Origin: an uncultured Spirochaetota bacterium
GTDB lineage: Bacteria > Spirochaetota > UBA4802 > UBA5550
Length of the DNA: 64,000 bases
Assembly: GCA_963827275.1 (NCBI GenBank)
Contig: CAWHAA010000006.1
Location: 192,001-256,000, forward strand
Direction of reading: 5' to 3'
A program made the translations under genes and the position numbers. Positions 48,641-53,097 of the stretch are shown one piece after another. Within the stretch, counting starts at the first letter, position 1. Every line of letters starts with the position of its first letter. The notes below the pieces were generated by a model. It searched no databases. It saw nothing but the letters and a program-made list of their open reading frames with translations, and was not told where the DNA came from.

Positions 48641-49712
48641 TCAATAGGGTGTGACCATTTCCCTGATCGTCCCCGATTCAACCGCTTCAAAAAATTCTTC
48701 GCCGAGTATTTTCGCGCCGTCGACCGCCTTTTTCCAGTATGACAAACGCTCGTCATCATGCCCGTAAAATTTCATGAAATCGTTCCGGTCGGGTATTTTC
48801 CCGTAGGGGAGTGCATCAATAAAAGGGTGTGACGGGCACACAATGAGGACATTCCGCATATTGTATTTTCCCGCCCTGCGCCATCCGAGGTGCTTGTCCA
48901 GCCATCCGGGGATGACAGAACCGGTATAATGGGGATACAGCACGATGCGGTCGGGGTCAGGATCGAAAGGAACATCCATGTGGTAATCAATCATCCCCCC
49001 GTCACGGTACACGCCGCTGGGCGCTCCGGGGATATCCTCCACACCGTTCATTACGAGCGGAATCGAGCCTGAAGCCATGATGGCCGGCTTCAGGTTGTCA
49101 GGCCCGAGAGGCACGCGGTGCGACGTGAAGCGCTTCATGCCCATGAATGGCGGCAGCTCCCGGGGGTCATGAAAAAGCGTTCGTTCAAAAAAAAGGCCCA
49201 TGGCGCGTCGGGTAGCGAAATTGCCTATGGTCGCCAGGGCCATTCCTGCCGCGAGAGCCGGGCGCGTCCGTGACGTAAATAGGTTCCTGGATCTGACGGC
49301 GAGCATGCTTAGCCGGATAAAGGGATGGGTGAGTATCTGCGAGACTGGTGTCATCGTTGACGTACCCGTCAAGTATCTTCCAGCTGGCGGTTGAAACCTC
49401 GTCCGTTGTCGGAAACCTTGAATAGCGCTGGTCGAGATAGAGCGCCTCAAACGCATCGATGGCCAGTTCCGGGTCCGCCTGGGAAAGGGCGGCAAAACGC
49501 CATGAGCCTATCGAAGAGCCCAGCAAGAAAAGGGGCTGTTTCCTGTTTCTGAAATATTTCCCGAAGAGCACCCGGTCAATGCCGCCAAGCACAAGCCACT
49601 TGGGCCCGCCGGCAGCGCCGGGAATGACGCGTACCCGGTCAAGGTTCAGTCCTTCGTCCCGTATAATCTCAATTGCGCGGTCGCCTGCTATGAATGAAAT
49701 GTTTTTTAACAT
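48641..49712 (-). CDS. Patatin-like/alpha-beta hydrolase; +1 frameshift near 49346
   Basis: GAAGGPKW, GSSIG nucleophile elbow, ASGSIP, YRDGG. ORFs 49185..49712 and 48641..49495 join at YVNDDT/VSQILTHP. Confidence 0.85.
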
Positions 49713-49891
49713 GGGGCCTCCGTTGCTTATTCAGAAAATCAATTTTGTACGATTGTCAATGAATTAATTAACTCCGGGGAAACCGGGTGCAGACAGTTAG
49801 TTTATATTGACTTTTTTTCAACGATGGATAGTATTGCACTACCAGGGGCGTCATAGCCAATGGCCATGAATCCATGCAACGGGGACCCCGG

Positions 49892-51125
49892 ATGCTGCAG
49901 CTCTATAACACAATGACCCGCTCCAAGGAAGCTCTTCAGACCGCGGGACAAAAAACAGGTAACCATTTTTACCTGCGGGCCCTCGGTATACCGAAGGCCC
50001 CATATCGGCAATTACCGGACGTTCATTTATGAGGATATCCTCGTCAAATACCTTGAGTACAAGGGGTACCGCGTCAAACGCGCGCTGCCCCTGACCGACA
50101 TTGAGGACAAAACGATCCTTGAAGCGATAAAGAAAAATAAAAAAATCGATGAAATAACCGGAAGCGTTGAAAAAATATTTTTTTCCGAGGCCAGGTCACT
50201 CAATATTCGCCTCCCCGACAAAACAGATCGGGCCTCTGAATGCATTGAACCGGCAGCGCTTATCATACAGAAACTCATGGATGACGGTCACGCGTACCGA
50301 TATAAAGGGGACATTTTCTTCGATCCTCTCACATACGATGGTTTCGGTAAATTGTACCGTCTGGACACCAGGCGGTGGCCGAAAAAAAAGGTACGGTTCA
50401 AGCGGGACACCTACAACGGCAACCGCTGGAACCTGGGCGACTTCATCCTCTGGCATGGCTACCGCGATGGGGACATCTCGTGGTGGGACACCATCATAGG
50501 GAAGGGGCGCCCTTCGTGGAACATACAGGACCCCGCAGTGGCGGTCCGGCGCCTCGGCGGAGCGATCGACATTAATTGCGGCGGCATAGATAACATGTAC
50601 CGGCACCATGACTACAACATAGCGATCATCGAATCATACACCGGCAAAACCTACGCGAACTACTACCTGCACGGTGAGCACCTCGTTGTCGACGGCAAAC
50701 CGATGTCGAAGAGCAGGGGGAACATCCTGTACCCCGCCGATATTTACTGCGGCGGATGCACCGCGCGCGACCTGCGCTTTTTCCTTTTTTACGGACACTA
50801 CCGCGCCAGGCTCAATTTTACCAGGGACCGCTTTAAAAGAACGTGCGCCATGATTGGAGAGTTCCGGGCGCGCGCGCGGCAACTCGTCAGGCACCCGGGT
50901 TCAACGGGAAAACAGGACCGCCGGGTGATATCCCTCGTACGCCGGCTCGGGCGGGAATTTGAACGCTCGATGGATGACGACCTGAACACCGGGGCGGCGT
51001 TCGATGCAATGAGCGGCGTTTTAAAGGAACTGCAGACGCTGCGCAGTTTCATGACGCCGGGGGACGCTCGCGACCTTGCGTCAATGCTGAAGCGCATCGA
51101 TACGGTATTGGGAGCGATAGGATAA
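49892..51125 (+). CDS. Cysteinyl-tRNA-synthetase paralog, C-terminally truncated with altered Zn site; +1 frameshift near 49929
   Basis: Joined: MLQLYNTMTRSKE/LFRP...TCGPSVY..PHIGN...TDIEDK...GDFILW...GRPSWNIQD...GGIDNMYRHHDYN...PMSKSRGN...HYR...MDDDLNT, ending VLGAIG. Confidence 0.85.
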
Positions 51126-51130
51126 CGACT

Positions 51131-52018
51131 ATGGCCCCCATACTTGAAGTCAGGAATCTGAAAAAATATTACCCGGAAGTAAAGGCGGTAGACGGCGTGA
51201 GCTTCTCTCTCGAACAGGGCACCTGTTTCGGGCTCCTGGGCCCGAACGGCGCCGGGAAGACCACCGCTATCGAGGTCATAGAGGGCATACTCAAGCCGAC
51301 GTACGGCGAGGTTTTTTATAAAGGAAGGCCGCGCGGCGCCACGTTTAAAAACGAGGTGGGGATCCAGTTCCAGAACACCGAGCTGCCGCAGTACCTGACG
51401 GTCAGGGAAACGCTGGTGAACGTTCAGGAACCTCTATGACCGCATGGCGGACATGGCGTACCTTGTCGAGACATGCCGTCTCGGATGAGATCCTCGATCG
51501 CGACAACCGCAAGATATCCGGCGGCCAGCGGCAGCGGCTCCTCCTCGCCATGGCGCTCTCGAACGACCCGGAGCTCATATTCCTTGACGAGCCGACCACC
51601 GGCCTTGACCCGCAGGCGCGCCGCCACCTGTGGGACATCGTCCACGGCATAAAGAAAGCGGGGAAAACCCTCGTGCTGACCACCCATTACATGGAGGAAG
51701 CGGAAATCCTGTGCGACATCATCGGCATAATTGATAACGGAAAAATCATCGCCATGGGGACACCCGCCGGCCTCCTGAACGAGCATTGCGGCGGTTCCAC
51801 AATAAGCATACACCTTGATCTCGATGATGCAACACTCGGGAATTTCCCGTGCAGGTATTTCCGTAAAGTAGGACCGGGTTGAAATACAGACCGATTCGCC
51901 AAGCGAGTGCCTGTACCGGCTGGTCGAGCTCGGCGTCGACCTCTCCACCCTGAACGTGAGGAAGCAGAACCTGGAAGACCTGTTCCTGAAGCTTACCGGC
52001 CATGAACTCAGGGCATGA
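51131..52018 (+). CDS. ABC-2 type exporter ATP-binding subunit; three +1 frameshifts (about 51416, 51483, 51869)
   Basis: GPNGAGKT, ISGGQRQR, FLDEPTTGLDP, TTHYMEEA; restored C-terminus NLEDLFLKLTGHELRA*. Confidence 0.88.
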
Positions 52019-52062
52019 GGCCGTCCGGAAGGCCCGGCTATTGTCTGATACGGAGGGCAGCC

Positions 52063-53097
52063 ATGTTTAAAAGGATACTGTCGCTTTTCAAGGCGCGCAA
52101 CCTCGAGTTCTTCAGGGACCGTTCCGCGTTTGCGTGGAACATACTGTTCCCGCTGCTCGTGATAGTGGGCTTTAGCGTCGTTTTCGGCGATGACCGCCAG
52201 GTCCTTTACAAGGTGGGCCTGGTCAAGCAGGGCCCGGTTGCCAATGCCGCGCATGATCCGCAGTTGAATAATTTCATGAGGACGAAATACGTCGAGTTCG
52301 TTCCGTTCAGCTCGGAAGAGCAGGCCGTTGTCACACTGCTCCATCACCGTATCGATCTCGTCGTAAATCCTGACAAAAAGACATTCTGGACCAGCAAGAC
52401 CTCCCCGAAGGGATACATCGCGGAACGCCTCCTGATTTCAAGTGCCGAGACGCGGCACACCGGCTTCAGGAAGGAGACCGTCTCCGGCACGGAGATACCC
52501 TATATCGAATGGCTGTTCCCCGGCATCCTGGGAATGAACATGATGTTCAGCGCGCTGTTCGGCGTCGGGTATGTCGTGGTGACATACAGGAAGAACGGGG
52601 TGCTGAAGCGCATGAGCGTGACCCCCCTGCGGCCATGGGAGTTCATCACCTCCCAGATCCTTTCGCGCATGTACCTTATCATGATAACGACTGTCGTTGT
52701 TTTTATCGGCTGCAAGCTCCTCTACGGATTCAGCGTCCGGGGCTCCTACCTGTCGCTCCTGCTCGTGGTGTGTCTCGGCGGGTTCAGCATGATCTCGCTT
52801 GCGCTCGTGGTCGCTTCGCGGAGCAGCAGCGAGGAATTTGCCGGCGGCATCCTCAATCTCATCACATGGCCGATGATGTTCCTGTCGGAGGTTTGGTTTT
52901 CTCTTGAAGGGGCGGAGCCCTGGGTGCGGAGCGTCTCCCGTTTCTTTCCGCTCACACACCTCATAGAGGCATCGCGCAAAATCATGAACGACGGCGCGGG
53001 CCTCGGGGACGTGGGCATCAATATTGCCGTACTCACGGCAATGTCGCTGCTGTTCATTGTCTCGGGGTCGCTGCTGTTCACGTGGCAGAAAAAATAA
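52063..53097 (+). CDS. ABC-2 type exporter permease
   Basis: EFFRDR.A..W, YIEWLFPGILGMN.MFS, RKNGVLKR...TP, PLTH. Confidence 0.92.
   Translation: MFKRILSLFKARNLEFFRDRSAFAWNILFPLLVIVGFSVVFGDDRQVLYKVGLVKQGPVANAAHDPQLNNFMRTKYVEFVPFSSEEQAVVTLLHHRIDLVVNPDKKTFWTSKTSPKGYIAERLLISSAETRHTGFRKETVSGTEIPYIEWLFPGILGMNMMFSALFGVGYVVVTYRKNGVLKRMSVTPLRPWEFITSQILSRMYLIMITTVVVFIGCKLLYGFSVRGSYLSLLLVVCLGGFSMISLALVVASRSSSEEFAGGILNLITWPMMFLSEVWFSLEGAEPWVRSVSRFFPLTHLIEASRKIMNDGAGLGDVGINIAVLTAMSLLFIVSGSLLFTWQKK

Follow-up and report, generated by a model that had tools for sequence, protein, structure and literature searches.

A widespread, apparently undescribed family of cysteinyl-tRNA synthetase paralogues lacking the anticodon domain, represented by an intact gene in a Spirochaetota genome

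Does a cysteinyl-tRNA synthetase (CysRS)-like gene that lacks the anticodon domain and carries an altered amino-acid pocket still serve translation, or has it taken on another function? The question is raised by a gene in the window, a stretch of 64,000 nucleotides from an uncultured Spirochaetota bacterium (contig CAWHAA010000006.1), which a preliminary description had presented as a CysRS paralogue interrupted by one repairable frameshift and likely to be a non-translational ligase for a different substrate. The gene lies on the forward strand at positions 49892..51125 and encodes 410 amino acids in the organism, the assembly containing one extra base near 49931.

From the ATG start at 49892 (MLQLYNTMTRSKE), the reading frame changes once, near 49931; it is then open at 49932-51122 and closes with a TAA stop at 51123-51125. 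The spurious base (49931..49933, forward strand) is left out in all three independent runs that cover the site (X1 and X2 at 49931, X5 at 49933; run X9, without coverage there, is not counted), and an intact database homologue, P0001, is 98% identical and 410 residues long. The frameshift is therefore an assembly error, and the proposed repair to about 410 residues proved correct. The motifs cited earlier (TCGPSVY, HIGN, GRPSWNIQD, DINCGGIDNMYRHHDYN, PMSKS and the C-terminal VLGAIG) were all found as quoted. Single extra bases occur in the assembly at window positions 49346, 49931, 51130, 51417, 51485 and 51871; those in the genes adjoining the paralogue are absent in all four runs (X1, X2, X5 and X9), and the split patatin and split ABC ATPase genes of the window are assembly artefacts. 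Upstream of the gene, a sigma-70-like promoter consensus (TTGACT-16-TAGTAT, 49807..49834, forward strand) was found once against 0.5 expected occurrences, which is not significant.

The protein matches PF01406 (E 9e-69) together with DALR_2 (PF09190), and the class I HIGH/KMSKS-type motifs are present as HIGN and PMSKS. The AlphaFold model of P0001 (mean pLDDT 93) has its best fold match in CysRS 8QHP (TM 0.88), followed by the mycothiol-type ligase paralogue MshC (TM 0.80-0.82), and the structure clusters found in the ESM Atlas are of the CysRS/MshC type only. Both curated profile cut-offs were missed, in agreement with the earlier view that the protein fits neither canonical CysRS nor MshC: the 397-residue open piece scores 272.8 bits against TIGR00435 (canonical CysRS; cut-off 340), intact family members reach 270-327 bits, and the score against TIGR03447 (MshC) is 156.1 bits for a cut-off of 485.1, with a match covering positions 35-408 of 411. 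In direct sequence comparison the protein is nearer to CysRS than to MshC (180 vs 120 bits). The match to E. coli CysRS (1LI5) stops at residue 393 of 461 and confirms the claim that a C-terminal anticodon domain is missing; the protein ends after the DALR helical bundle (50955..51113, forward strand; PF09190). The median number of residues after column 405 is 5 in 82 family proteins and 64 in full-length CysRSs. No fused form was found among longer proteins at E<=1e-60, which is weak evidence; one fusion-like open reading frame of 1077 residues (L104:1614-4847) was discarded as a shadow frame opposite a 591-residue gene, which we take to resemble a rubredoxin-domain, thiamine-diphosphate enzyme.

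Among the 120 best homologues, selected by E-value and not by motif, every one retains WN[IV]QD and HHDY, and none runs more than 12 residues beyond the end of the query; the conservation of H206N and C209D, two of the substitutions named in the preliminary description, and the absence of the anticodon domain thus extend to the entire set. A scan of GTDB genomes confirmed 561 relatives among 586 pattern matches, and the best 80 of the 561 are distributed among Spirochaetota, Desulfobacterota, ANME-1, ANME-2, Methanoperedenaceae, Methanomicrobiales and Thermoplasmata. A metagenome scan that started from a distant member added 80 loci, 71 with the motif and 9 unclassified by pattern. Prevalence is patchy: the paralogue occurs in 23 of 60 relatives, in 18 of 301 Spirochaetota (source genome included; genome G559 was dropped because its match is a full-length CysRS), in 7 of 301 Desulfobacterota and, for the class to which an ANME-2 genome belongs, in 8 of 151 genomes. 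One copy (L083) is carried by the cultured Desulfoferrobacter suflitae DRH4. A quick IQ-TREE analysis of 74 rows, 28 full-length CysRSs among them, united all 38 family rows in a single clade (SH-aLRT 100) whose stem branch is long, at 0.98 changes per site; within it, members from archaea and bacteria are intermingled. Database entries are labelled simply as CysRS or as "class I tRNA ligase family protein", and no description of the family was found in the literature searched, which lay mostly outside the subscription journals. The gene is therefore a real, intact member of a widespread and apparently undescribed CysRS-derived family of anaerobic bacteria and archaea.

The paralogue is not the working CysRS of the cell, since a canonical CysRS or SepRS stands beside it in every genome tested. 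In the source genome, the canonical cysS whose presence the preliminary description had asked to have confirmed was found on contig C1, at C1:142695-144106. It encodes WHIEC, HHENE and a C-terminal domain and is interrupted by several indels that are probably assembly artefacts too; a tRNA-Cys(GCA) gene is located on contig C10. A second, longer CysRS match is present in 23 of 23 carrier relatives (four confirmed by motif), and a canonical CysRS in all seven Desulfobacterota carriers. In four of these seven (G065:C53, G444:C52, G451:C14 and G509:C178; loci L160, L180, L181 and L191), a CysRS-like match falls within an open frame some 800 residues long. Nine archaeal genomes yielded no CysRS-like gene other than the paralogue, which counts against a simple rule that it is always a second copy; SepRS, however, scores above the cut-off in all nine, and G064, the one carrier among the archaea to lack SepRS, encodes a full-length CysRS. 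The fold, the conserved motifs, the loss of the domain and, in all carriers tested, an alternative route to Cys-tRNA are thus established. That the gene is nevertheless an ordinary CysRS, a decaying pseudogene or a sequence artefact is very improbable: the frameshift displayed by the assembly and the nine archaea with a sole copy speak for it, and the runs lacking the extra base and the changes shared by all 120 homologues refute decay and artefact, just as SepRS in the nine archaea and the additional CysRSs elsewhere oppose an ordinary role. It is a conserved paralogue that keeps its adenylation motifs.

Residue statistics were compiled from 82 non-redundant family proteins and 28 full-length CysRSs; the 82 were chosen by WN[IV]QD, so that these five columns are circular and their conservation rests on the 120 homologues chosen by E-value. 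Numbers refer to E. coli CysRS unless they are family-specific (family C229, for example, occupies the position of E. coli G225). Invariant in the family as in CysRS (82/82) are C28, G29, H37, T68, D69, K73, W205, D229, H234, H235, H256 and K269. The segment FTCGPSVY..HIGNYR (49968..50018, forward strand) contains Cys28, a zinc ligand in CysRS, Ser31 and the HIGH-type ATP motif, with C28, H37, G39, N40 and R42 conserved in all 82 proteins. TDIEDK (50094..50111, forward strand) retains T68, D69 and K73 (82/82 each), T68 of CysRS having an amino-group-binding role. In PMSKS (50700..50714, forward strand), K269 is kept (family K273, 82/82) and K266 is replaced by Pro, the corresponding family position 270 being Lys in 51 of 82.

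The pocket itself is heavily rebuilt. Relative to E. coli CysRS, the protein carries H206N, E208Q, C209D, H224N, G225C, L230N, P233R, E236D, N237Y and E238N; of the three replacements originally pointed out, all of which the alignment to 1LI5 confirms, H206N and C209D lie in GRPSWNIQDP (50505..50534, forward strand), where W205 is kept and E208Q is added. E238N is present in this protein and the loss of the glutamate is family-wide, but Asn is not the family signature: in 158 family proteins from the loci, the position is occupied by N (85), T (58), S (10), V (3) or I (2). The segment DINCGGIDNMYRHHDYN (50568..50618, forward strand) keeps D229 and H234/H235, bears L230N, P233R, E236D and N237Y, has lost E238, and contains a new cysteine, Cys229, at the G225 position. 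In family numbering, C229 and R237 are each found in 81 of 82 proteins and H238, H239, D240 and Y241 in all; C229, N234, R237, D240, Y241 and H188 are family-specific with respect to the 28 CysRSs. Two residues with tRNA-contact roles in CysRS, H224 and N351, are affected as well: the H224 position is variable and its His lost, and the N351 equivalent (N365) is retained in 16 of 82 family proteins vs 28 of 28 full-length CysRSs. The HYR motif and the helical bundle are kept (H302 67/82, R304 79/82). Binding of a substrate thiolate at a Cys/Asp/His zinc site is known elsewhere, e.g., in protein farnesyltransferase. Of the canonical zinc ligands C28, C209, H234 and E238 (PMC7563103), C28 and H234 are kept here, C209 is replaced by Asp and E238 is lost. 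Judged by Rossmann topology alone, C229 would sit on the strand next to C28, facing the H234/E238 helix, and may replace E238 as a metal ligand.

A different substrate had been deduced from C209D, E238N and H206N. C209D and E238N are insufficient by themselves, because MshC, a proven cysteine ligase, also lacks E238 and because full-length CysRSs with C209D occur naturally. Among the 30 best-scoring full-length CysRSs from a sample of 61 Thermoplasmatota genomes, seven carry WH[IV]ED; no other CysRS-like match was found in six of the seven genomes concerned, and SepRS was not found in any of the six tested, five of which are small MAGs (the Thermoplasmatota genomes are mostly small and incomplete, which limits how this absence may be read). 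These enzymes are apparently the housekeeping CysRSs of genomes in which no SepRS was found, and C209D alone therefore appears compatible with cysteine charging. In favour of the earlier deduction, the C209D exchange in E. coli CysRS greatly reduces translation activity and leaves persulfide synthesis intact (PMC10655014; PMC7563103), and H206N, E208Q, P233R and E236D are invariant in the family and absent from MshC, from full-length CysRSs and from the natural C209D enzymes, a pattern that fits a changed side chain.

A sister clade of short proteins, labelled Ca. Methanoperedens (L119-L122, L141-L144; P0121-P0240), bears on the order of these changes. Like the family, its members are about 405 residues long, with GPS at 29-31 (and hence S31), GGVDN, N234 and a basic CP1 loop, and they lack E238 and the anticodon domain; unlike the family, they keep WHIEC, H224 and P233, and they are annotated as cysteine--tRNA ligase. 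No characterisation of this protein was found in the literature. The clade was found in 4 of 151 archaeal genomes, in each of which it is the only CysRS-like gene and is accompanied by SepRS. The quick tree joins it to the family, apart from all 28 full-length CysRSs (SH-aLRT 97), a placement in which long-branch attraction is possible. That a WHIEC-keeping short clade groups with the family suggests an initial change of acceptor at a stage when cysteine was still the substrate, and the simplest order would be loss of the anticodon domain and acquisition of a new acceptor loop, followed by rewiring of the pocket. Second copies in Thermoplasmatota (L302, L304, L306 and L313) are also short (about 405-425 residues) and HIGH-type, with WH[IL]EC kept, so that archaea have lost the anticodon domain more than once.

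The CP1 acceptor loop (WP..K.RF.RDTY.G.RWN.GDF.LWHG; 50358..50459, forward strand) is rebuilt and basic. Residues 156-182 have a mean net charge of +5.7 in the family vs -1.5 in the 28 full-length CysRSs, and W162, P163, T173, G176, W179, N180 and H188 are family-specific. In the search for a cognate, odd tRNA near the gene, ARAGORN found no tRNA in 102 of 104 loci, tRNAs of the 8/4 or 9/3 type being liable to escape it; the other two are ordinary Gly and Leu tRNAs, and no Rfam match was obtained in 9 loci. Four related archaeal loci have a tRNA-Arg gene at a distance of one gene, and a fifth has a more distant tRNA-Pro; both are taken as lineage synteny. An ordinary tRNA-Cys and a tRNA-Sec (UCA; C8:213595-213686) are each encoded once in the source genome (G000), the latter unlinked to the paralogue; four further long, low-scoring ARAGORN calls have broken stems and look like noise. 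No selB-like gene occurs among the annotated neighbours.

Neighbourhoods, whose inspection had been recommended, were examined for 165 loci in 59 groups, and yielded neither a universal partner nor pathway genes that recur across lineages; no msh genes were seen among the annotated neighbours. Lineage-specific neighbours include DHODH with an AMP-binding enzyme, MATE, phosphoglucomutase, glmS/rpe, patatin with ABC-2, and rubrerythrin. In the window, the neighbours are patatin and an ABC-2 exporter, not redox genes, the exporter ATPase and permease lying directly downstream (51131..53097, forward strand), adjacent in this genus but with a putative functional link only. Such adjacency occurs in three lineages, namely this genus, ANME archaea and the Methanoperedens sister clade (window 51131-53097; L090, L095, L102, L145, L150; L142-L144), in differing orientations; in three of the four sister-clade loci, the CysRS-like gene is directly behind the exporter pair. 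The ATPases are 35-40% identical across lineages and mostly closer to other ATPases of the source genome, and the only source-genome match of the Methanoperedens permease is the permease beside the paralogue (E 8e-14). Because the ATPases of these lineages are not mutual closest relatives, the exporter was not counted as a functional link. In 7 of the 54 groups (out of 59) that have neighbours, rubrerythrin, AhpC, WrbA-type flavodoxin, OsmC or CMD lies no more than two genes away, vs about 0.7 expected from the 16 genes of these five families in the source genome, an estimated 3,800 genes and 155 neighbour slots. This is a weak trend: the category was picked after the data had been seen, the neighbours are partly annotated, two groups are possibly related, and the background is a single indel-rich genome.

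Comparison with known systems places the family between several precedents. With canonical CysRS (TIGR00435, PF01406; 1LI5/1U0B, 8QHP) it shares the fold, about 35% identity, HIGN, MSKS, C28, W205, H234, H235, H256 and the DALR bundle, whereas the canonical enzyme has the anticodon domain, C209 and E238 and a CP1 loop of a different, non-basic build. MshC (TIGR03447; 3C8Z, 8HFM) resembles the family in length, end point, combination of catalytic domain and helical bundle, absence of the anticodon domain, loss of H224 and E238, and Tyr at 237 (HHEYS and DIQGG vs HHDYN and DINCGG in the family); it differs in keeping the Cys/Cys/His zinc site in WHVEC...FPHH, here WNIQD...YRHH, and the carriers seen here are Spirochaetota, Desulfobacterota and archaea. 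The CysRS* of Desulfobacterales described by Mukai et al. is likewise a second cysS copy with no anticodon domain and an altered CP1, but is linked to selB* and a selC* tRNA-Cys(UCA) and has a PTVS motif in CP1 (PMC5389517); that motif was not found in the CP1 segments of the family, nor was the linkage seen in its loci. A CysRS* mimic without the anticodon domain charges the selC* tRNA (PMC5389517), so that a non-translational role, as proposed at the outset, does not follow from the missing domain. Other repurposed synthetase paralogues include YadB and amino acid:carrier ligases besides MshC, with MshC and CysRS* listed for CysRS (PMC9437257).

The explanation that we tentatively prefer, at somewhat short of an even chance, is that of a CysRS-derived, MshC-like enzyme that would activate cysteine or a close sulfur analogue as an adenylate and transfer it to an acceptor other than tRNA. 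It is suggested by the invariance of the adenylation and backbone residues in 82 members, by the length and end point shared with MshC, by the MshC-like loss of H224 and E238 with Tyr at 237, by the natural C209D CysRSs, by the WHIEC-keeping sister clade, by the loss of the N351 equivalent, by the lack of tRNA genes in 102 of 104 loci, and by the redox genes in 7 of 54 groups. It is weakened by H206N, E208Q, P233R and E236D, by the poor translation activity of E. coli C209D (PMC10655014), by a basic CP1 loop that would suit an RNA acceptor equally well, and by the lack of recurring pathway genes, the window's own neighbours not being redox genes. In such an enzyme, Cys28, Asp213 and His238 would form the metal site, with the newly gained Cys229 possibly in place of the lost Glu238; the amino acid would be adenylated through HIGN/MSKS and passed to an anionic acceptor, which R237 and the basic CP1 loop would hold in place. 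The product might be a low-molecular-weight thiol for redox defence, which is the most speculative step. A more specific version is considerably more doubtful: the enzyme would catalyse the committed ligation of a low-molecular-weight thiol pathway, as yet undescribed, that operates in methane-cycling archaea and in anaerobic bacteria of sediments. It would have a Cys2/Asp/His site and would have evolved separately from MshC, by way of an intermediate that lacked the anticodon domain, was specific for cysteine and survives in Ca. Methanoperedens.

The same pocket could instead belong to a tRNA-independent ligase for an amino acid other than cysteine, e.g., one with a hydroxyl or anionic side chain bound at a harder, Asp-containing metal site and R237. 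Ten positions differ from CysRS, most of them invariantly (H206, E208, C209, H224, G225, L230, P233, E236, N237 and E238), three of the five WHIEC residues are changed where MshC keeps WHVEC, the stem branch is long, and E. coli C209D is poorly active (PMC10655014); we nonetheless regard this as rather unlikely in view of the complete retention of C28, W205, H234 and H235, the gain of a cysteine, the natural housekeeping-type C209D CysRSs and the cysteine motif of the sister clade. Action on RNA, either by charging a special tRNA independently of its anticodon, as proposed for CysRS* (PMC5389517), or by modifying a tRNA in the manner of Glu-Q-RS (YadB; PMC9437257), would account for the strongly basic CP1 loop and the retained HYR motif and helical bundle, but is unlikely to a slightly greater degree, given the loss of H224 and N351, the absence of Rfam matches and selB-like neighbours, the ordinary tRNA-Cys and single tRNA-Sec of the source genome, and the scarcity of nearby tRNA genes, even with the ARAGORN caveat. 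A dedicated cysteine-persulfide synthase, derived from the reported PLP-dependent side activity of CysRS, or an enzyme that hydrolyses the adenylate without transfer, is improbable. Persulfide synthesis survives C209D in E. coli, whereas translation activity is largely lost (PMC10655014), K73 and K269 are invariant (82/82 each) and some lineages have redox neighbours; of the other lysines linked to persulfide formation, K76 is retained in 11 of 82 (and in 3 of 28 full-length controls) and K266 in 51 of 82, both are missing from the window's protein, and HIGN, TD, W205 and GxD are invariant although said to be unneeded for that activity.

Repurposed synthetase paralogues are a known kind, to which this family, apparently undescribed, would belong. 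New chemistry has come to light time and again in paralogues that abandoned translation (PMC9437257), and the family is a further, sharply defined CysRS-derived lineage spread across bacteria and archaea; a review of archaeal thiols expects novel ones still to be discovered (PMC7278568). Natural variants with C209D and without E238 also provide a measure of how far the textbook zinc site of CysRS can vary. Full-length examples of the former, with the motif WH[IV]EDTAI, are found at L161/L272-L277 and L279 in Thermoplasmatota and at L174 in genome G091.
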